Positions 5,073 to 28,524 of a stretch of DNA of 64,000 bases are shown here, one piece after another (positions within the stretch are counted from its first letter, which is position 1; the number at the start of each line of letters is the position of its first letter). The translations under genes and the position numbers were made by a program. This DNA comes from Yuukianura sp. NJ FZ-2021 (lineage: Eukaryota): contig CM102285.1 of assembly GCA_046563655.1 (NCBI GenBank), positions 8,618,001-8,682,000 of the forward strand, given 5' to 3'. Under the pieces are notes generated by a model. The model ran no database searches and had not been told where the DNA came from. It saw only the letters and a program-made list of their open reading frames with translations.

Positions 5073-7836
5073 TTTCTTCCCACTTTCTGAGTTAAACAAT
5101 TACTGAAGAAACGCTAAACCATTATTTCGAAACTCTATTTGAAAATGAATTGAGAAAGTTAAATTCCTAAAATATAAACTTAACTTTAAACTCAAAATGA
5201 AAATGAAATTAACCATATCAAACTAAACTAAACTCTAACTTTGAAATGGAAATGAAAACGAAAAACTTAAATCTAATTGAAGGTGAATCGGTTCGGCTTC
5301 CTCACTTGTCTTCCACTTCGGGTTACAACGGGATCCGATTCCACCTCCATGTCCAGTTCTTCAACTGATGACTCCTGTTCCTCGAGTTTTCTTGGCTTTG
5401 TGATGATCTTCTTGACACCACTCTTCGGATCTGTACCAGTGACGATTTCTGTGACGTCATCTCGGATCTCCAGTGGAATCAAACGCTGTATCGGGCGGAG
5501 TTGACTGCCATTCTTAGTCCGAATTCTGGCCACACGAACTTTTCCGTCTTTTCCTGGAAGGAGTTCCACAATTTTCGCCATAGGCCAAAAGATCCGCTTC
5601 TGATTATCGACTTCGACAAGTACCACTTCTCCGACTTTGAATTCCCGGATCTTCTGTTCTTTTCCTCTCTGGATCAATTGTCCCAAATATTCGGAGCTAA
5701 AACGGTCTCTGATTTCCTGGTGGAGCTGTTGTATTGTCTTTTGCTCCTTCAGAGTTGACACGATGACAACGCTCGACTCTGGTACTTCACTGTAGGGAAT
5801 ATTGTGCATGAACATACCTAGCAGGCGTTAATGGCACAAAATCGTCCGGATCTTCCGTCACGTATGTCAATGGGCGATGATTAATGGCAGCTTCAACTTC
5901 ACAAAGTGCTGTCTCCAGTTGCCCCAATGACAATTTGCCAAATCCGAGTGACTTCCTGAGCAGATCCTTGGTACTTCTGACCAAACGTTTTTGGACACAA
6001 TTTCTTTTTGTTGTTTTCACACAAATGAAAATCATCAATTCAATAAATATGAAGTCTCTGATGATTAGGATGGATCATTGTTTGTTGAGAGTGGTTTTAT
6101 CCTTAGGAGAAATGACAAGTTAATTCTATTTTCAGACTTTAACTTCAAAGTACTATAAAGATTAAGTGCATGAACTTCTTAAACCTTTTCGGTTCTTGGA
6201 GTTTGACCAACTGGCACAAAATCGCTTCTTCGGTGTCGAAGTCCTTTTGTTGACCACAGAAGTATGTCTAGAAGTTTGCTTAAGAACTTTAGAAGATTAA
6301 TGGAAGGTTCCTGAAAGAAGAGAACGCGGAAGGAACGTGCTGTCTCCAGGGTCCCCCTCGCTCATAAACATTAACGCGTCGTTAAGATCCGAGTGACTCG
6401 CCTAAACTTTATGTGTGAAAAGGTCAAGTTTTTGGACCTCTACAATTTAACACTTTCTTCTCTTCTAACTTCATCTTCTGGGCTTTGAAACAATTGTTGG
6501 AGTCGTGGGGCTTCTCACACACACTTTTCCTGCCTTCCCACCTCCACTTGTTCCACTGAAAAGTCCAGCTGAAGGAAAATCTTCATCTTTCTGTTCTTGT
6601 CGATTTTGATGTTTTCGTTTCTCCGGAATGAAGCCGAATCCAGACCGGGCTAACTTCCGCTGTTCCTCATTCTCAATTTCAATCTTCAGAAACGACATCA
6701 GAAAATCCAGTTCCGATCTTCTCTTGTTCCGTCCTTCCCAAAATTCGGACTCCGCTGCCAGGCAAGAAGAACGTCTTCCGGCTGACTGGATTCTACCATT
6801 GGAAACAAAAATTCGACCATTTGTTCTATACTGACACCAAGTGATTCCAAGGAACGTAGTGAAGCCTCCAACTTGTCAAAAAGTGTAGCGAGTGGCGTCT
6901 TCTCCTTTGAGCGATTATCCAAAATCAACTTAATCAGCTCACGGACGTACACTTGCTTGAGCAACTTCTCCTTGCCGAATCGTTCCTTCAGTGCAGCAAG
7001 GGCTTTCGGGTAATTTTCAGAAGACTGGGATATCGCTTCACTTCTTCTTCTGCCCGTGAGCCCAACACCATGGACTGCACCAGGTAACTGAATTTGTCTG
7101 AATTGTGGAGCTCCTCATCTTCATCAATCTTCTTAAACTGGGCCCATCAACCCAACCAGTCCGTTAACTCTCCAGAAAATTTCATCAAATCGATTTTCGG
7201 TAGTTTGACACGACGACCGTAGGCATTGGATGACTCGCTTCTCGTTTGCCTGACTGGGCGTTGACTCTTCCACAGATTCTGGAGTTTCGTTTCTGCCTTC
7301 ACTTTGACTAGAGTTGCCTTCTTCCGAAACTCCCGACTTTCCGTCCGTTCTGAGGAAAGGACACCCCCATCGACATCTTCCATATCCAGGATGAACTCTT
7401 TTATCTTGTCATCCAGTTCTGACTATGTTTGCAGAGAAGAATCCAGTAACTGGAGTGACGTCACGATCTCATCTTGGTTCACTGGATCTTTCTGCAATTC
7501 ATCTTTGAGTGACTTGACCAAATCCTGTACGCCACTCCTCTCAGCAGCTCTTTCCCGTTTAGCTCTCTCCATAGCTCAAAAAGGTAAACAAACAGAAACA
7601 AAAGATCAGGATTCTGCTTTACGCAATTGATCTGAAACGATTTTCACCTCAGTAAGTGCCGTTCCGGTAGGCACGGACCACTATGTATTCGATCGTGGCA
7701 GTATCGGCTCCACACCCGGACGATACTCCAACTGACTCCTGTTGTCCAAAAGTATCCAACGAACGACGTCTGGAACTCTCCTTGTCAGGTTACTGCTCCA
7801 CCACTCCAGTAAATTTGAGGCCAAGGGTCACCAAAA

Positions 7837-17495: not shown

Positions 17496-18720
17496 GTAGC
17501 CGACGGCCGATTAATTTGACGACGACCGTACTTAACAGTACTTTGGAGGTGGAGCAATGATTTGCTATTGTAGAAGTCTCCCGGTCATTTTGTTGTGACG
17601 TTGAGTGAGTCTTCGCTGTGTCAAAATGAAGTAAAGTGTTGTGTGGCTCTTGGGATGTCCGACATCTGTACTTCGATTGTCACTTTTCAACATTGTACTT
17701 GGAACTGAGACAGTTAGCGCACAAAATTTTCTTTTTGACAAAGCTAAATCTGTCCTTTACACTTAACTTTAGCCAGTTGTCACATTTGAACAGACCATGT
17801 TAATCTTGGCACATGGACAAGTGAACTTGTGTTTTGAGTCGTCTGACTTCCGTTCAGTAGAACTGGATTGAGCCTTACTTTGACTAGACGATCCGGCGGA
17901 GGATGACGATCCAGTGGATTTGAGTCCCCGGATGTAGTTTTCCAGTTCTTTTGTGTCGGAAAAGTTCGGAACGTCAGAGCCCTTTAGTTGCTTACCCCAG
18001 TCACGTCGGCAGTCAGGGTCCATCTTTTCCTTGAGGAGATAGGCGATTATGGAATCCCAGTGTTCTGTTGGTTCATTGAGTGTCTCCAACTGTGTCAGCG
18101 ATTCCTTGAAGCAATCAATCAGTTTCCTCAACTGAGTAGAATTTTCTTGTGTCAGTTTTGGAAAGCTGACTAGTTTTTCGATTAATGTAAAGACGAGTTC
18201 CCTTTTGTTGTGGTACCGTTCTTCCATCAGCTGCCATGCTCCTTGGAAGTTGTCATCAGAAATGGGAGTTCCCTTGATGACAGTATCTGCGTCACCCTTG
18301 AGAGCGGAGTGAAGATACCAGAATTTGACACAGTTAGGTAACGTGGTGTTGTTGATCACTGTGCTGCGGAATAGATCCCGAAATGTCAGCCAGTCTTCGT
18401 ACTTTCCATCGAAAGTTGGTAGAAACATCTTTCGAAAGTATGAATTGCCGTTATGGTGATGATGTGACCGTGCAGAAGTAGAAGGAACTGATGGACCTGG
18501 TACTGATACTGGCGCTGGCACTGGCTGAATTGTAATCAGCTTTTCGTTCATAGTGCCAATCATTGTGACAAACTCCATGTACGTCCTGGAATGATCTTCA
18601 ATCTCTTCATCAACTGACGTGGCTATGATGATTTTGTTATGAAGAGTGTCGAGGTCATTCCTGACTCTGATCAGTTCCCGTTCTGCAGTTTTGATTGTTG
18701 GATTTGGCGTTTGTTCCTTG
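17496..18720 (-). mobile_element. BEL/Pao gag fragment (second family)
   Basis: ORF 17769-18578 (LPTFDGKYEDWLTFRDLF...KFWYLHSALKGDA...AWQLMEERY), then frameshifted Cys/His knuckles (CANCLS...HNTLLH) and the start of the protease region (LLSTVVVKL). Confidence 0.88.
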
Positions 18721-20000
18721 TGTAGTGAAAAGTACGTTATCTAATTCTAAAATAAACGACTTCTCAAAACACGATGTAGAATTGCGTTCGCAATTGAGCT
18801 AAACTTTTATTTTTAAAAGTTCGATTGAAAAGAAGAAATCGAAGAGAGTTTTGACCTAGAGGTCAAGTAGAAATTTGACTGGAAAGAGTTCTGTTCGAAA
18901 TCGAGCAGATTAACGAAGTGAGTTGACATAGGACGACCTGGCCTCTTTTATAGGGTCATGGTCGGAGTTACACAAGGCAAAAATCTTACTTCTATGTAAA
19001 TTTGATGTGAATGACTTGTAAATTATGCATACAAGCTAAAAATAAGTCTATTCTTGAACTTTAACTTTGCAAATTGAAAGTTACAACAAACAAAAGACAA
19101 AACACATAAGACAGAAGTAGTAATTAGAAACTCTAACCAGAGTTCATTGACTTCGTCACAGTCCTCCCTTCTTAGGATGGCAACTCACCGGAGTTGCGGA
19201 AGACAGGACGATTTGGGCAGTGTTTTTGCTTATGTCCGTATAGTTTACAGACGAAACAAGGCTTGGATCGATGTCGTGTCTTCGGAGTCATTGCCGCAAG
19301 AGTAGCTCGAATTTCGCGGGGATCCGTCAAGGCGAGAATCGGTCTACCAGAAGATTTCGGTTGTTGCGGTTGAAGTTGTTGTTGCTGCTGATAGGGTCTT
19401 TGAGGTGGTGGCCTTGAACTACTCGCACGAGCGAAACTGTATAACGGCGATGTTGCGATGCATCGAAGTTGGCCAGTGGAGATTCCGGTGGAGATGAAGT
19501 TTCCTTCCGCTTTTCCGGGATCTTCCAGGCGGAAAAGTCGGTACGTCCGTCCGGCGGATTTGAATTTAGCAGTAACGGAATGTTTGAACACGAAGTACAG
19601 GATGGGCCTTTAATCTCCTTACCCTCTTTCTTTTCCTCTCACTATTGTCATAAGAAACTCATGTGAGAGTTTCTCTTTCTTTCACTTGCGCTAAAGTTAA
19701 CATTACTTTGCTAATATTTTACGGATTGCCGCAACCCTCGGATGTAAATAAGGTATTGGCTTGATATGCGTGAGCGAATACAGTCGCGTTAATCGCCCAC
19801 CGTCTTCGTCTTCATCGCTTGACGAATCTGAAGTCCTCTCATCTTCAGAAATTTCGCCCACCCGAACAAGCAGAGCACCAAACTGCAAAACTTTATGAGC
19901 TGGGTGGTTCTGTGCAAAGTTTTTGTGAAAGTTGGTGCTGTCAAAGTTGTGACAGTGTTCCAATCTCGCTACATCCATGTCAAAAAACTAAAGCAATATG
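18721..20000 (-). mobile_element. 3' end of a Gypsy-like LTR element: 3' LTR 18721-19160, PPT and extra zinc-knuckle ORF
   Basis: Minus strand LTR TGTGACG...CACTACA with TATAAAA and AATAAA. PPT GAAGGGAGGAC (19161-19171) directly follows the stop of ORF 19172-19591. Left-hand limit abuts BEL gag; right-hand limit is approximate. Confidence 0.7.
19172..19591 (-). CDS. LTR-element accessory ORF with Q/P-rich region and CCHC zinc knuckle (5' end uncertain)
   Basis: CFVCKLYGHKQKHC (Cx2Cx4Hx4C) near the C-terminus; the ORF ends at the PPT. An acidic in-frame ORF lies upstream (19703-19978). Confidence 0.55.
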   Translation of the reverse strand: MFKHSVTAKFKSAGRTYRLFRLEDPGKAEGNFISTGISTGQLRCIATSPLYSFARASSSRPPPQRPYQQQQQLQPQQPKSSGRPILALTDPREIRATLAAMTPKTRHRSKPCFVCKLYGHKQKHCPNRPVFRNSGELPS

Positions 20001-20696: not shown

Positions 20697-23530
20697 TCAA
20701 ATATATTTCGCTAGTTGCTTCTTAATTAGGTCATTTTTTAGTAAACGTTTAAATTGCATCACATTTTTTGCTTCCCTAATTTCCTGATCAAGCTCATTCC
20801 AGAATTGTATTGACCTTGCTTGGAAGGTTACGCTTCCGAACTTTCCCCTAGTGTTATAATTACCGAAGCTAATTCTAGTATTATTGCATGCATTTGACGT
20901 TGGATACCTATGGATTTCATTAGCTTTTATATAATAATTCTTAAATACCTCTACAATATTTACATTCATTAATTTGTACATAAATACCAATACTTTATAC
21001 CTAAATAATGACTCCGGGTATAACCAATTTAATTTTTCTGTCATGTCTTCAGAAACTTGGTCAAATTTTATTTTATCTAGTGCCATCCTAGCCATTGTTC
21101 TCAAAACTTTTTCCACTTTCTTCATATTTTTTATTGTTGTTTCACCCCATACCACAATCATATACTGGATTACCGACAAAACCAAAGCTTCCAGTACAAT
21201 TCGTCTGGACTGTAGTGGTAAGTATTCTTTGTACTTGTAAATACATCCCATTACACAATAGCATTTTTTTACAACACAATTTACTTGATCATCCCACTTT
21301 AAGTTTGAGTTTACTATGAGACCCAGCATTTTCACACTCTCACTCTGTCCCACGGACGTTGCATTAAGCAAAATTTTCTTCTTAATTGAGCCAGATTTAT
21401 TACCAAAAAATAAAAGCTTTGTTTTTTCTTCATTAATCATCAATTTGTTCATTTTTATCCACTCCATTAGTCTGAACATATCCTGGTTTATTTTTTCCAC
21501 CATACCATCAATTTCTTTTTTGTCACATACAAATATGGTACTCGTGTCCAACACAAAAATAATAAGTTTCCCATTATGTATCACCAGTTTAAGATCATTT
21601 ATGAAATACGTGAAGAAAATCGGTCCTAGGACACTTCCTTGAATTAATCCCGTGGGATTTTTAATTAATCTTGACTTTTTATTTAATAACTCCACAAACT
21701 GAAATCGATTACCAAAGTAATCACGAAGCCAAAAATCAGAAATCCGAAATTGTTCATTCAGTTTTTTCAAAAGTATATCCCTGTGAACGCTTGGGAAAGC
21801 ATTTCGAAGGCCAATATTGACCATCGCACATACTTTACCCAAACTCACCTCTTTTTTTATATAATCAATTCCATAAATCATAGCATGTTCAGTAGAATGT
21901 TTTTTCCTACAACCAAACTGATAATTACTCAGAAAATTGTTTGAATTTATGTGCTCCATCACTCTTTTCACATATATTTTTTCAAGAAAAATCATTATAA
22001 AGTATGAAATTCCAATAGGTCTTAGATCTTTTGGCTTTTTTGGCTGCTTTATTTTTGGTATTGGGATAATTTTTGTCACTTTAAGTTGGGGCGGTATATT
22101 GCCTTTTTTAAAAATGATTTCACGAAAATTTCTAAAAAATTCTACAAAATTATGAAAGTTCATTAAAACGTTAAACATTTTCTTACTGACACCCAGTATT
22201 TCCAATTCTGAATTTTTTTTCTTCATATTTTTCCAAGTCTTTTTAATATCTTCAGTTGAGATTTCTTTAACAAAAAACAATTCATCAGACTTTATACATT
22301 TTGTTATACTTTCCAGTGTCGTATGGTACAACATCAACTTCAAAAGAATTTTTCACATAAAACTCATTTAATTCATCGGGATCAAAAACATTTTCATTAT
22401 CGCCTTTAAATTTGTTCTCAACATCAAATTGAAATTCAGTTTTTAAAACATCCCAAACGTTATTCGTTTTAAGCTTCCTTAAGACTTTCTCCGAAATGTG
22501 TTTTTTTAATTTTAGTTTAATCCCCTTCTTTATTTTCTTTAATTCCAACTTTAAGCAATCAACTTTCGTTGCACAGAACTTCTTTCTCAAGTCATTCGCC
22601 TTTTTATACAAAGACTCCATTTCAGGATTAAGGTCAACATTGCGATTTAAACTTTCTTTAACTTTTTTTTTCCTTTTCGCCGCAACTTTATTAAAAATGT
22701 CTTTAATTTGTTTTGTGAAATTGTTAAACAACATTTCACTTGATTCTTCGTTTTCAAAGATAAGGACTTCTTTTTCCATTATTAGATTCAGCTCAATTAA
22801 ATCACTTTCCGAAAAATTTCTTTTCTCTTCAAATTTCATTTTCTGTTTGACCTTTTTATATTTGTACTCAATACTACTAAGAACGTGATCAGAAATTCCA
22901 AATTCATTTACTTGAGCATCATTTACTGTCTCATCATTAGTTACAACATAGTCTAACAACGCCAAACTTCTCGTTTGCTCTTTCACTAATTGACGTAAAG
23001 ATAATTTTTCAAAAAGTCTTTTCATTTGCTTCGTGTATTTATCCGTCTTGAAAAAATCCCGATTTAGATCTCCCAAGACAAAAAATACTCGATTTGAGCG
23101 AATCGAATTTGAGAAATCAGCTCTAAATTGTACACACCAGCACAATTCAATTTTTTGTCTGGAATGTAGACAACACAAACAACAATAGTTTTGAGAAATT
23201 TGAGTTGGACTTTTTTGCACATATATTCTAACGAGCAAGGTAATTTAAACTCCTTTTCATCTATGTAAAACTCGTTCACTTTTAAGGTTTTCTTGCATAA
23301 AATTCCAACTCCCCCTCCTCTTTTTTGTATTCTATCTTTTCTGTAGAAATGAAAACCATTTGGAACAATGGCTCCTGCACCTTCTTTCAACCAAGTTTCC
23401 GACAGACATAAAATATCTACATGTTCTAAATTTATCATATTTTCTAATTGTTTTACCTTTTTATCATAGGAACATACATTCTGGTGAGCTAATTTTATTT
23501 TTTGACTTACATTTTTTGTGTTAGTGTTAA
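20697..23530 (-). pseudogene. LINE ORF2 (endonuclease plus reverse transcriptase), frameshifted
   Basis: Endonuclease motifs LAHQNV, DILCLSETWL, RGGGVGI, VLGDLN, LLDYV and ISDH; RT motifs DLRPIG, QFGCRKKHST and QGSVLGPIFF. Catalytic F/YADD is degraded to FVLD. Frameshifts near 23100-23230 and 22330. Confidence 0.92.
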
Positions 23531-24034
23531 ATACTGTTACGGTGAATTATTCCTCGGACGAATAACCGCACCGGAAAACGCTCGAATGTCCTCCCAGAAC
23601 CTGGAGACTCCTAAAGAAATGACCTCTGACCTCTTGACCTCGTTCGGACCGCGTTTGGTCTTAAAGTCAAATCTTTATTGAAATGTAAAAGACAGCTTTT
23701 ACAAGAAAGTACTGAGCTCACTGAGAGCTAATCAATGAATGATTTCTGAATTCCAGAACAACTCTGGAGCAAACATTTACAGTTAGCGTGTGTGGGTGGA
23801 ACGGCAATTCCAACCCAACACACAAATCAAATACCTAACGGTAAACGCAAATTTGGATTAGCCTAAATTCCTACGACTAGGGGGAGACAACAAAACACAC
23901 AAACAGCTTGGCCTTGAGGGGTCAAAATACTACATTTTACATTTCTAGACTTTGAAAATGTAACTAAAAACTGTGCAAAACCTTACTACATAACAATACT
24001 CCGGGGGATCTTCAAGTCACGTCCACGTGACTGC

Positions 24035-24649
24035 TCAGTTGTTGTTGTTGTGGACGGCAGCAACGACGTTCACCCGGGGATTGGGGATGTACTGGGGATT
24101 CGGTGGGGCTCCAGGAGGGGGACGAAGACGAAGCGGTCGCTGGACAAGGTAATCTGCTGCTACATGACCTTGGGCCCTGCATGTATAACAAATGCGACGT
24201 CGTTCAGCTTGTCCGTTTCGTTGTCCGCGAGCATTCCCGCGTCCACGAGCATTCCCACATCCACGAGCATTCCCACGTCCACGAGCATTCCCACGTCGAG
24301 CGAGCCCGCCTCCTCTCTCCCTCACTATGATGACGAGTTCTCGCCCGTTCCGAAATTCTCGCCATTGCGGCATTCCGCGTACTGGGGGTGGCCGGACGCG
24401 CATGAGCGCAACTTGACGTTGACCTCCACGACGTCACTGAGCATTTCCATTTGCTGGGGCGAAGACCGGAACTGGAATAACCGGAGCTGGAATAACCGGA
24501 ACTGGAATAACCGGAGCTGGAAGAACGGGAGGCACATTTTCCACTTCTTCCTCCTCGTCGTCTGTCAACACAATCTCAGGAATTCCTTCCGCCGGCTGGT
24601 CAACGGCCATCGGCTCATCCTCTCCGAGCAATTCCCTCTCTCGATCCAT
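24035..24649 (-). pseudogene. Accessory third ORF of the Gypsy element: acidic/Pro-rich, RG-repeat and zinc-knuckle protein with one in-frame stop
   Basis: Track ORFs 24434-24721 and 24035-24403 are in the same frame, split by one TGA (24434-24436). It reads MDRERE...DDEEEE, PVIP repeats, RGRGNA repeats and CYTCRAQGHVAADY. A branch point and acceptor lie just before the ATG. Confidence 0.7.
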
Positions 24650-24887
24650 GTTTTCTGAAACATGACAGAAAGTTAGCAAAACTTTCAAGCACAAAGTTAA
24701 AAAAACAATGATCTTAGACACAAAGTCTAAACAAACAAACTTTGAAAATTCATTTCAAAACTCAAAATGAAAACTAATTTTTAAAAAAAAAACACTAAGT
24801 TTTAACGAAAACTTCCACATAGGAAATTCCTAATGATTAAAATTCACTAAGAATTTACAAAAAGTCAAACCTACCAGCCATGTTCCT

Positions 24888-26255
24888 TCACTCAGAAGAA
24901 CAACGGTACCTTATTGGTTTCCGAATGGTTCGGGCTGACCTTCGCACTGGTACTGCAGTTTGCTGGACTTCCTTCTTCTTGGCCTTCTTCACCACAACTG
25001 ACCGACTTGGCTGCTGGACATGGACCATTTTACCAATGTCCCCTTCGTCAGTGGCAGAATCTGAGTCAACGTGGACACTAAGTCTAACGGGACTTTTCAT
25101 TGATTCTGAGGAATTAACATTCCTCTTCTTTCCAGACTGAGTCTGATTCGGAAGTTCTAATTCTGATAGCGACGAGCTAGATGAACTAATCTTTCTAGTG
25201 CGCTTAATTTTCTTAACTTTTGAAGAAACAAATTCTTCATCTGAACTCGAATTGAATTCACTACGAAAGTGAAACAAATCCCTAACATGCACAATAATCG
25301 GCTTCCTACTACTACCAATCAATTTGATTTGGTAATTAACTGCCGATGTTTTCTTAGTCACCACATAGGGACCTTTGGTTTGTGCAAGTAAGCATTGGGA
25401 CAAACCTTTCTTACGTACTGGCACTGAGCGCAGTACCTTATCTCCAATGTTAAAATTAACATTTTCCTTATTCCTGTCAAAACGAACTTTTGACTTTTCA
25501 TGAACTCTCATAGAGTTCAAGGCAGCGCGAAAGCGAGCAGCTTCCAGCTCTCTAGGGAACTCATCCCTACGATCATTTTCAGAGCAACTAGGCAAATCCA
25601 TGTCAAATGGAAGTCTAGCCTCTCGCCCATGCACGAAGTAAAATGGCGAATATTCTGTTGTCTCTTGCCTACTCACATTATAGGCAAATGTTGCCGATGC
25701 TAAACAATCATCCCAGTTGTCCTGACTAGGATTAGCATATTTGGCAATTATTTTCTTCAAGGTCTGATTACATCGCTCGGTCATTCCGTTAGACTGAGGA
25801 TGAAAAGGAGACGTGAACTTGACCTTGAACTTCAGCTCCTCTTTTGCCTGTTTCACTAAGTCGGCAATGAACTGACGACCTTGGTCACAAACAAATTCTT
25901 TCGGCAACGAATGCCTAAGAATTACCTTATCTTTTATATTAGCTACAACGCACTCAGCGGTAGCGTGTGTGACTGCTACGGACTCAAAGTAGTGGGAGAA
26001 GTGATCAATAAATATGAGCGCATATTTATTCTCCCTGTCCTTGGACTTTACAAATGGGCCAATAAAGTCAATGCCCACTCTCTCAAATGGGGTCGTGACC
26101 TCGTCAAAGTCTTGCATAGCCCTCTGCGCACTCTATGTATCTGACAAACTTTGCATCCTAGAACAAATCTACGGACGTCACGATACATTCCGTTCCAGAA
26201 AAAGCGAGATTTCACACAGCTCCATGTTCTCGTCACGCCAAAATGTCCACTTAGG
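24888..26255 (-). CDS. Gypsy integrase (zinc-binding domain separated by a frameshift near 26120)
   Basis: GHFGVTRT...FWNGMYRDV...CKVCQ; PFERVGIDFIGP, DQGRQF and PFHPQSNGMTERCN (D,D,E triad); GPY module. Confidence 0.92.
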
Positions 26256-26921
26256 TCACCTGCGTGTACCGTCTGTTTTTTTACCGGTCTGTTTTACCGG
26301 ATTTTTGTTACAGACCCACTTAGGTTTGTCAGGCTTATCCGGCTTGTCCATTTTTCGCAACTTCTGCAAAAATTCAGTCGGATTTTTCGGTTCTGCGCAG
26401 TACATAATGTTGCGCAGCGTGTCGGGAAGCCCTTTGGTCAACTTTTCGACCTGCTTCTTGTCCGACGTCCGATTGGGATCCAGCATCACAAAGATACTCA
26501 ACTTTTTGCTGACGTACTCCCCAGCGGAGCTACAATCAACAAACTTAGTGGCACTGGCAGCCTTTTTCGCTTCCTTACGAACCGACTCAGGTTCGTAAAA
26601 CGATTTTAATTGTTGTTTCAACAATTCCCACTTCTGATCCTTGTTAGCGTCACTAAGATCGCTAATGTACTTGATCTGCGCAAATTTCCACCAATCCTGT
26701 GCTTCACCTTCCAGAAGCAGATGAAAATTTAGTAACAATAACCTGGAGTCAACTTGCTTTGTCTCCAGCGCAACATCACATCTCACACAAAAAAGGTCTA
26801 CATTCGATTTCCCATCGAATTTAGGAATTGACCTAATGACACTTTTCACATCGCTGGACATGGCAGTCGCAACGTTAGTGCCTTTACTCGAACTGTTACC
26901 AGTTGCCATCACAAAGTGCAA
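26256..26921 (-). CDS. Gypsy gag (capsid-like), C-terminally truncated
   Basis: First ORF after the PBS; IPKFDG...LLEGEAQDWW...WELLKQQL...GLP retrotransposon gag pattern. No zinc knuckle in the retained part. Confidence 0.85.
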   Translation of the reverse strand: MHFVMATGNSSSKGTNVATAMSSDVKSVIRSIPKFDGKSNVDLFCVRCDVALETKQVDSRLLLLNFHLLLEGEAQDWWKFAQIKYISDLSDANKDQKWELLKQQLKSFYEPESVRKEAKKAASATKFVDCSSAGEYVSKKLSIFVMLDPNRTSDKKQVEKLTKGLPDTLRNIMYCAEPKNPTEFLQKLRKMDKPDKPDKPKWVCNKNPVKQTGKKTDGTRR

Positions 26922-27494
26922 CTTCCCTATTGGTACTCAACTGAAATTTTAGCACAATAACCTTACGTGAGTTCCTGAACGTATGCCCCCAATCACGAAG
27001 TTTGAAGACTAGTTCCGTTGCTCGTTCCACCAAATGTTACGGTGCGTTATTCCTCGGACGAATAACCGCACCGGAAAACGCTCGAATCTCCTCCCAGAAC
27101 CTGGAGACTCCTAAAGAAATGACCTCTGACCTCTTGACCTCGTTCGGACCGCGTTTGGTCTTAAAGTCAAATCTTTATTGAAATGTAAAAGACAGCTTTT
27201 ACAAGAAAGTACTGAGCTCACTGAGAGCTAATCAATGAATGATTTCTGAATTCCAGAACAACTCTGGAGCAAACATTTACAGTTAGCGTGTGTGGGTGGA
27301 ACGGCAATTCCAACCCAACACACAAATCAAATACCTAACGGTAAACGCTAATTGGATTAGCCTAAATTCCTACGACTAGGGGGAGACAACAAAACACACA
27401 AACAACTTGGCCTTGAGGGGTCAAAATACTACATTTTACATTTCTAGACTTTGAAAATGTAACTAAAAACTGTGCAAAACCTTACTACATAACA

Positions 27495-28408
27495 ATACGT
27501 TGAGATGATCCAGTGGCTTGCACGCGACTCCCTTCTCCTTCTTCCAACTCCATTGTTGCAGGTTGTTGACCGATTCGATTTGTTGTAAAATTTGCCGGAC
27601 GAATTAATGGGGATGAACTTCCTGTTGTAAATCTTCGCCTGGTAGACGCCATTTGCACCAAAATTGAATGACGTGGTTGCCACTCTTTCAGTGCTCCATT
27701 TGATCCCAATACGAAAAAGACTCCATTAACGACAATCCTATCTCCCATGACCTTGACGACCTTCCCCAGTTGTCTCGCTTTGGCCGCTTCCGCTCTAAGT
27801 TTCTTCCTTTTTGTTTGAATTGAGGCTGGCAGATCTTCATTGATGTAGATTTTCATTTTCTTTTTATGTAACATCGATCCTCTGCTCAGTACAAGATTTC
27901 GGTGATTTTCTGTGCAAAATCTAACTTTGACGACTCTCGGGCGATTTGGTAGTGGCTTTCCAAGTCGGATACATGTGTCTACTGGTACTGTACCCACTTC
28001 TAGTTCCAATGGTCCTTCAAAAAGTCGGTAGATTTCACTTCGCAGATCCGATTCAGTTTCATTCATTTTTTCACTCAAGCCGAAGATGACAAGATTTTGT
28101 TTTCTGGCTAAGATTTCCACACTTTCAAGCGTTTCTTCCACTTTGGATATAATGTCATCAATCCCCTCCTGATGGTTTTCAATTTTAGACACTCTTTCAG
28201 ACATGCACTTTAACTCACTTTTTACTTCTTCAACACTAGCTTGGATTCCACCAATGTCATTTCTAATTCCTTCAATTTCGTGTTTGATGTCACTCAAATT
28301 TGCTTTCATTAAGCGTTCAATTCCCTTCATGGAAACGGGTTCTTCCTCCACTTCCTCTTCTGCCTTCCTCTTCTTGTTTCCATTTTTGGTCATTTTCAAT
28401 ACAAACAA
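27495..28408 (-). CDS. LINE ORF1 (coiled coil plus RRM-type L1-like ORF1)
   Basis: Heptad repeats followed by RKQNLVIFGLSE, RLGK...RPRVVKVRF and IYINEDLP. The natural stop is reconstituted as CGT ATT TAA when the Gypsy insert is removed. Confidence 0.88.
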
Positions 28409-28524
28409 CCAGTCGTTGACAACACACTCTTTACTGTTTTAAAGAGTTTTTTTTCTCCTTATTTTTAGAGAAAAAGGTGCACAACCAAGGTCAGTGACAG
28501 ACAAAAGGGAACTGATCATGATCT

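Follow-up and report, generated by a model that had tools for sequence, protein, structure and literature searches.

The small open reading frame that follows pol in the element described here, called ORF3, is a true accessory gene, found throughout the deep lineage of Ty3/Gypsy elements to which it belongs. That it is a separate gene is almost certain; its position is conserved, it is under purifying selection, its splice signals are conserved, and gag has a knuckle of its own.

The element lies in the window, the whole stretch of 64,000 nucleotides that was analysed, and its parts are collected in Table 1. It is a Ty3/Gypsy LTR retrotransposon, not an errantivirus, with TG...CA-ended LTRs and a target duplication. 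It sits inside a LINE, between that LINE's first ORF and its endonuclease. The insertion must be young, as its two LTRs differ by only 5 mismatches and 1 gap over 463 aligned bases. The copy is dead. About 2.9 kb of gag-pol is missing; protease, reverse transcriptase, and RNase H are deleted, the C-terminus of gag is gone, and gag ends ahead of its knuckle and then runs into integrase. In a full-length copy of the same family (L010), pol carries RVT_1 (451-611), RNase H (674-800), H2C2 (906-963), and rve (982-1079), with no protease match in Pfam.

Table 1. Features of the window element, read on the minus strand (positions are those of the window)
Feature	Position	Strand	Remarks
Ty3/Gypsy LTR element	27494 to 23535	-	3,960 bp, 4-bp target duplication
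5' LTR, TG...CA	27035..27494	-	preceded by target duplication GTAT (27498-27495)
Primer-binding-site-like TGGTGG stretch	27021..27032	-	sequence; motif also in relatives
Leader splice donor candidate CAC/GTAAGG, GT at 26966	26961..26969	-	in 4/4 family copies with leader
gag, cut before its knuckle by internal deletion	26256..26909	-	Retrotrans_gag E 8e-5
Integrase remnant: H2C2, rve, p58_C/SH3, long Ser-rich tail; two frames	24888..26293	-	
Integrase stop	24890-24888	-	
Small upstream coding exon ATG GCT G	24875..24881	-	in frame with ORF3 once local intron is removed
Local GT-AG intron, 220 nt, 25% GC	24655..24874	-	branch-point-like GCTAAC 24677-24672, acceptor TTTCAG
ORF3, 204 codons, broken in window copy	24035..24649	-	between integrase stop and 3' LTR
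ORF3 layout from the N-terminus: acidic first third, then Pro/Val repeats and a basic middle, a CCHC-type knuckle at 24190-24149, and a Pro/Asn tail			
Inverted repeat, 7-bp arms, 4-nt variable loop, candidate cis element	24015..24032	-	ORF3 stop to LTR
3' LTR	23535..23995	-	then target duplication GTAT (23534-23531)

The family is low-copy, with at least 4 copies that include ORF3 and at least 12 LTR matches in the genome. Between the ORF3 stop and the LTR, the arms of the inverted repeat are identical in all five family loci, and the minimum-energy fold forms the hairpin in two of the five. No clean polypurine tract was seen ahead of the 3' LTR (24032-23996 in the window) in the window copy or in L010, L011, L012, and L027. 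The target duplications of four family insertions (window, L010, L011, L012) are all 4 bp long and end in TAT, a possible site preference.

ORF3 was noticed from the letters of the window alone, and much of its description in the initial annotation stands. The frame of about 204 codons opens with an ATG at 24649 and closes with a TGA at 24037-24035 on the minus strand. It has the acidic N-terminus that had been claimed and a Pro/Asn tail, as well as 15-nt PVIP repeats (24465-24539) and 18-nt RGRGNA repeats (24206-24313). Ahead of its ATG lie GCTAAC, a pyrimidine tract, and TTTCAG (AG at 24656-24655), the last ending 5 nt short of the start codon. The knuckle of this copy lacks its fourth ligand and matches zf-CCHC at E 0.013. 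ORF3 has a GC content of 57%, against 25% in the local intron.

Other parts of that description need adjustment. The internal TGA, at codon 72, is real; its proposed origin from CGA by a single base change is unconfirmed, because the open copies differ there over several neighbouring codons. The absence of a signal peptide fits an N-terminus that is acidic and, by inspection, not signal-like. The absence of a membrane segment is less simply stated. The 19-residue hydropathy maximum is 1.84 in the window copy and 1.7-2.4 in the family, values that reflect Pro/Ala/Val repeats, and it is at most 1.2 in 18 relatives; the spacing of the prolines and the low values in the relatives argue against such a segment. 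An antisense frame of 246 codons (23918-24658) was considered and rejected as a gene; it runs in codon register with ORF3, and the selection observed fits the sense frame.

A DNA search of the 98.7 Mb animal-type genome found the family copies, three of which, besides the window's, cover ORF3. The frame is open in all three, and all three have a complete CX2CX4HX4C knuckle with basic flanks, which is the form of a gag nucleocapsid knuckle; their zf-CCHC matches have E values near 6e-4 and bit scores of 20.1-20.3, against a cut-off of 20.8. In all six family pairs dN/dS lies between 0.09 and 0.20 (Nei-Gojobori, away from gaps). In nine close pairs from sister families it lies between 0.07 and 0.35, with gag controls at 0.04-0.27; in three of four distant pairs dS is saturated. 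Length differences within ORF3 preserve the frame, while indels in the spacer and intron are mostly not multiples of three. The suspicion that the segment is a rearranged gag C-terminus peculiar to the window copy was not borne out; ORF3 is distinct from gag and present in other copies. Two family copies with full-length structure encode a 273-aa gag with a CCHC knuckle of its own.

The weight placed earlier on RG repeats and condensates did not hold up. The RG repeats differ from one copy to the next and do not occur in the sister and metagenome proteins, and the PVIP repeats also change freely between family copies. ORF3 diverges faster than the genes before it. Between family copies it is 63-69% identical and the LTR 67-85%, while gag-pol is 90-99% identical; in pairs that include L010, dS in ORF3 is about ten times that in gag. 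This joint divergence of ORF3 and LTR fits a protein that has a cis target near the 3' end of the element, as judged from sequence, although linkage and template switching also predict it.

How might such a gene be expressed? The window has a local splice donor that the initial annotation had missed, a GT at 24874, 16 nt past the pol stop. Donor and acceptor are both kept in 19 of 20 copies in this genome, the donor as GTA(A/G)G 15-59 nt after the pol stop and the acceptor as a tract-YAG 113-277 nt beyond it. In the sister families the join is in phase 1, and the ATG-bearing exon is open in 9/9 copies tested. That first exon adds an acidic peptide with its own ATG, and even across families with saturated synonymous sites the peptide stays similar. 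In the window family, the acceptor stands 5 nt before the ORF3 ATG, and the upstream exon is two codons long or non-coding. The ATG of this exon occurs in L010 but not in L011, and is therefore dispensable in this family.

The acceptor that had been pointed out before ORF3 is thus conserved, and the evidence for a splice junction is genomic. It comes from the twentieth copy (L012/L174), whose LTRs are 99.3% identical, whose target duplication is ATAT, and which holds three nested insertions. The 312 nt missing from it begin with a GT in the pol tail, 19 nt ahead of the pol stop, and end precisely at the predicted AG. Random deletions have GT...AG ends in 1.1% of trials and GT...tract-YAG ends in 0.05%, and three other deletions inspected in the family are not GT-AG. 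The simplest reading of this gap is that a spliced genomic RNA was reverse-transcribed. It is a single event, with a cryptic donor and 3 nt of microhomology at the junction, and a DNA deletion could also have made it. Taken with the conservation of the site, we consider it quite probable that the acceptor before ORF3 is used in splicing.

Outside this genome the signals are arranged differently. Among metagenome relatives, a pyrimidine tract and YAG stand 0-7 nt before the ATG in 11 of 15 loci inspected, against 51 of 1267 ATGs (4%) in a background that is lenient, being uncorrected for T-rich spacers and for the choice among one to three ATGs. No GTRAG donor was seen right after the pol stop in these relatives. 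Donor-like sites follow the primer site in all four that have a visible leader, one of them without the G at +5. The short leader of the sister families has no GTRAG donor. A route from a leader donor to the ORF3 acceptor is plausible from these motifs. Because relatives have the acceptor 0-7 nt before the ATG, donor-like sites in the leader, and no local donor after pol, the ancestral state looks env-like, with the local intron added in some branches. Five loci of this genome (L014, L015, L016, L021, L023) have no sense-strand GTRAG in their first 4.9 kb and several in the last 1.7 kb. An apparent depletion of GTRAG from sister pol (none in about 3.5 kb) was set aside as not significant against codon shuffles (P 0.06-0.14).

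The gene extends well beyond the window family. Five sister families, with integrases about 50-60% identical to that of the window family, have a frame of 160-190 codons that closes with a knuckle and lies after pol, ahead of the polypurine tract. From metagenomes, 80 loci were fetched with an integrase profile, and 40 of them, picked by identity or by downstream length, were examined. A knuckle ORF directly follows pol in 14 of the 40; two further knuckles were discarded as part of a neighbouring element's gag. An integrase tree was built with FastTree from 95 rows and rooted at its midpoint, leaving out L011, L131, and P0174, whose integrase matches were short or missing. The window family, its sister families, and all 14 metagenome loci fall in one clade of it, with support 0.988. 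The named database matches are about 50% identical and fall outside that clade.

Within this clade of the 95-row tree there is no member with an env or an exonuclease gene. The earlier statement that ORF3 stands in place of env holds for position only; no env-bearing member was seen in the clade. The clade also includes five elements with a disordered, knuckle-less ORF3, one in which no ORF was seen, and five cut or broken loci. The knuckle-less ORF3s (L166, L167, L168, L169, L172) are Pro/Ser-rich and 200-420 aa long, and four of the five start with an EGIAxxDLA acidic motif, like the ORF3 of the window family. Among 40 Gypsy loci of the genome that are more distant, a short knuckle ORF3 occurs in two, which lie in a separate clade. 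The knuckle ORF3 of L154 and L160 is independent, with a start that resembles the N-terminus of the gag capsid, and three close relatives have no such ORF.

What unites the proteins of the clade is a layout rather than an alignable sequence. An acidic N-terminal third and a basic remainder are seen in 19 of 22 ORF3 proteins, which are 97-213 residues long and carry one or two knuckles. Short E/D-x-L-L and hydrophobic-acidic motifs recur among them. Some sister variants (L041/L180, L047) have the middle replaced by a second knuckle. Profiles of the window family and of the sister families align at the knuckle only (79.9%), and in profile alignments no full-length similarity was detectable between the ORF3s of different sub-lineages. 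With alignment limited to the knuckle, common descent of the whole ORF3 rests on position and short motifs. One of nine database proteins examined (P0038) looks like a true relative of the sister-type ORF3; it is encoded on a 5,320-base contig, and a pol 67% identical to the pol analysed here is recorded on a contig of equal length. A second knuckle ORF3, broken and belonging to a sister family (closest to L015), lies in the window itself at 19172-19609 on the minus strand, 4 kb from the element, accompanied by a purine tract and LTR-like sequence starting near 19160.

The only domain match of ORF3 is zf-CCHC, with no env fusion glycoprotein or enzyme domain, and outside the knuckle the searches linked it, by sequence or by profile, to no protein that has a name. 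The family ORF3 had no match at E 0.01 among 2343 candidates, and the Atlas gave no usable match, or generic knuckle clusters under 0.9. A sister profile had 170 matches, and among the 150 listed nearly all were to the knuckle only. A metagenome profile matched seven unnamed proteins, four of which were the query set itself or near-identical to it. Viral contigs gave no ORF3 match. The predicted model of exon 2 of a sister ORF3 is disordered save for one helix and the knuckle (pLDDT 60, pTM 0.19).

Where, then, did the knuckle come from? Across 13 elements, the ORF3 knuckles score best against gag knuckles from within the same sub-lineage (permutation P 0.0006), a signal that comes mainly from three metagenome elements, the 13 not being independent. 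The knuckles of the sister families do not resemble those of their own gag (mean -4.6). Comparison of ORF3 and gag profiles is weak (2.5% and 53%); it aligns nothing outside the knuckle, and the ORF3 of this clade has no capsid domain. On these scores, it is likely that in part of the clade the knuckle derives from gag. We lean toward the fuller statement, that the knuckle is a copy of the one in the gag nucleocapsid of the element itself and that the protein would hence bind the element's own RNA. Two short look-alike peptides had suggested that the body of ORF3 came from the gag N-terminus, which the profile comparison does not support.

Errantivirus env is expressed from spliced mRNA. Like the env of gypsy, ZAM, and Idefix, ORF3 is a third ORF at that position, with an acceptor just before it and a donor candidate in the leader; it has no fusion glycoprotein, signal peptide, or membrane anchor, unlike the env genes that these sources describe (PMC3383448, PMC13524379, PMC13486581), the second of which deals with env. 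Errantiviral gag is described as lacking a CCHC finger (PMC3383448), whereas the gag of the window family has one. Other accessory ORFs offer partial likenesses. Bdelloid rotifer LTR elements are reported to carry ORF3s that are not env (DEDDy exonuclease, GDSL esterase, transmembrane, coiled coil), typically made from spliced messages (PMC5408684). These too are lineage-specific genes after pol. The ORF3 studied here, by contrast, lacks any enzyme domain, and the main text of that paper contains none of the words zinc, CCHC, and intron. The sORF2 of Drosophila mdg1-clade elements is described as a FAST-like membrane fusogen (PMC13486581), and additional ORFs of plant Gypsy elements as env-like or antisense (PMC7264820). 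Both are, like ORF3, small conserved accessory ORFs under purifying selection, and neither, as those papers present them, is a knuckle protein.

The closest functional parallel is CERV. According to the published accounts, Cer1, a Ty3/Gypsy element of C. elegans, exports its unspliced genomic RNA with the help of CERV, itself made from spliced RNA (PMC10309623, PMC3315495). CERV has 517 aa, three folded domains (H, M, G-like), a C4-type loop, and exons in common with gag (PMC10309623). ORF3 likewise lies after pol and before the 3' LTR, and its splicing is supported from DNA; it is far shorter and predicted to be disordered, with a gag-type CCHC knuckle, and no sequence link between the two was found. 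By size and predicted fold, ORF3 is not a CERV homolog, CERV being compared by its description. The same accounts present Rev as a small basic accessory protein, made from spliced RNA, that licenses the export of unspliced RNA (PMC10309623, PMC3315495). Proteins of this type work through Arg-rich helices and a Leu-rich export signal, whereas ORF3 would use its knuckle, and there is no homology. Rex and Rec are further export regulators of the Rev type.

These parallels frame a tentative proposal, the likeliest of the roles considered here, that ORF3 might work as Rev, Rec, or CERV do, as an adaptor for genomic RNA. The rationale is that a genomic RNA with strong splice sites must leave the nucleus unspliced, and a small basic knuckle protein made only after splicing fits such a feedback. 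Here, the ORF3 protein would be made from a spliced subgenomic RNA, which would leave the nucleus by default; a second donor, close behind the pol stop, would in this genome add a short first exon. The protein would then re-enter the nucleus and use its basic region and knuckle to bind genomic RNA that is still unspliced, while the acidic-hydrophobic motifs of its N-terminus would recruit a host export or anti-retention factor. The gag-pol RNA could then be exported, translated, and packaged. The window copy, being broken, can perform none of these steps.

Other roles must be weighed against this one. The initial annotation suggested a second nucleocapsid or condensate scaffold; such a protein would be a cytoplasmic RNA chaperone serving primer annealing, dimerisation, or particle assembly beside Gag. 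A CCHC knuckle with basic flanks, the disordered model, two knuckles in several relatives, and a gag-like knuckle context in some sub-lineages would all suit such a chaperone. Gag, however, already carries a knuckle, the RG repeats are not conserved, and chaperoning needs no conserved acidic N-terminus; we regard this role as unlikely. Alternatively, the protein may counter silencing, with the knuckle tethering it to nascent element RNA and SUMO-interacting-like motifs engaging or titrating the SUMO-dependent co-transcriptional silencing machinery, a host pathway. Hydrophobic-then-acidic motifs (IVLTDDEEE in the window, IVVLSD in the sisters) do occur in 13 of 22 proteins, where shuffles predict 2.0, an enrichment inflated because the pattern was defined after the sequences had been seen and the proteins are related. 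ORF3 also turns over fast relative to gag-pol, and other lineages of the genome have exonuclease-plus-knuckle ORF3s. Yet nine of the 22 proteins lack the motif, the low dN/dS gives no hint of positive selection, and no such case was found in the literature searched, which leaves the idea decidedly unlikely.

Copy-number control has a precedent in Ty1, where p22 limits transposition by a competition of this type; here, a free nucleocapsid-like protein would compete with Gag for the packaging signal. The resemblance of the knuckle to that of the element's own gag in some sub-lineages and the low copy numbers (lower bounds) would agree with it. The ORF3 of this clade, however, has no capsid domain, and it is harder to see why a gene that limits its own element should stay under purifying selection in the long term, so this role is improbable. 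No better is the prospect of a transactivator like Tat or Tas, whose acidic activation region and nucleic-acid-binding C-terminus would act on the LTR. That would account for the acidic N-terminus with E/D-x-L-L motifs across the clade and for the joint divergence of ORF3 and LTR; but CCHC knuckles mostly bind single-stranded nucleic acid, and linkage explains the co-divergence, so that it is, if anything, slightly more improbable. Hardly credible is the view that no separate gene exists, and that the frame is a gag fragment or low-complexity filler of the window copy with chance splice motifs. The window copy is indeed broken, and low-complexity GC-rich frames easily stay open, as the in-register antisense frame illustrates. 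Against this stand dN/dS values of 0.07-0.35 in 15 close pairs, a layout that recurs within one clade in six families and in 14 metagenome loci, and an alignment with gag that is confined to the knuckle.

The adaptor proposal can be extended. A deep, unnamed Gypsy lineage might have reused its nucleocapsid knuckle as an RNA address label on a disordered, acidic, host-binding region, arriving at a Rev-like switch with env-type splicing independently of retroviruses and of CERV; on balance this larger scenario is somewhat unlikely. Since other lineages of the genome join a knuckle to an exonuclease, the sequences suggest that an effector plus a knuckle for self-RNA may be a general design of retrotransposon accessory genes.

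For only a few LTR retrotransposons is it known how an unspliced genome with good splice sites is exported, CERV being the main Gypsy case in the literature searched. With a small gene that persists in a lineage despite integrase differences of up to 70%, the export question becomes testable in a new system, and a natural splice-loss copy and several variants co-existing in one genome add to that testability. If the mechanism is true, ORF3 would point to a class of retrotransposon regulators about which little is known. The literature searched, Repbase reports and supplements aside, yielded no description of an ORF3 with a knuckle following pol, and an earlier one is possible. New here are the link to the divergent family of the window, the integrated copy that has lost the intron, the acceptor found across the clade, and the likeness of the knuckle to that of gag. 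More broadly, the env position appears as a general accessory slot, as one genome holds env, exonuclease, F-box-like, disordered, and knuckle genes there. Short, low-complexity genes of this kind escape annotation.

Several of these other occupants were recognised by eye. One Gypsy lineage has a 3'-5' exonuclease-like ORF3 (L140, L141, L143, L145, L146, L151, L155, L157, L159, L164, L165, L171, L173); nine of the 13 have a CCHC knuckle in frame, one has it in a split frame, and three have none. Env-like ORF3s are found in L134-L136, L138, L139, L142, L148-L150, and L152, and nested among the env-bearing elements in the tree are L144 and L147, which have two tandem ORFs with F-box-like segments at the env position. 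In L136, a long, basic leader of Cys/His type stands before the signal-like stretch; the small membrane ORF of L137 has this leader too. Behind the env-like frame of another element lies the L027 array (G000:C4:11493400-11495250), a tandem of LTR, primer site, 3' end of ORF3, and LTR with a 660-bp period.

The rest of the window is rich in remnants of mobile elements. The LINE split by the Gypsy insertion, with an ORF1-like frame, endonuclease, and reverse transcriptase, occupies 20697-23546 and 27485-28438 on the minus strand. A BEL/Pao-type gag (DUF1759; 17769-18740) and an integrase-tail-like frame (5273-5827), both on the same strand, are further LTR remnants. On the plus strand, 1749-2654 is a host phenylalanyl-tRNA synthetase exon (tRNA-synt_2d, E 4e-17).
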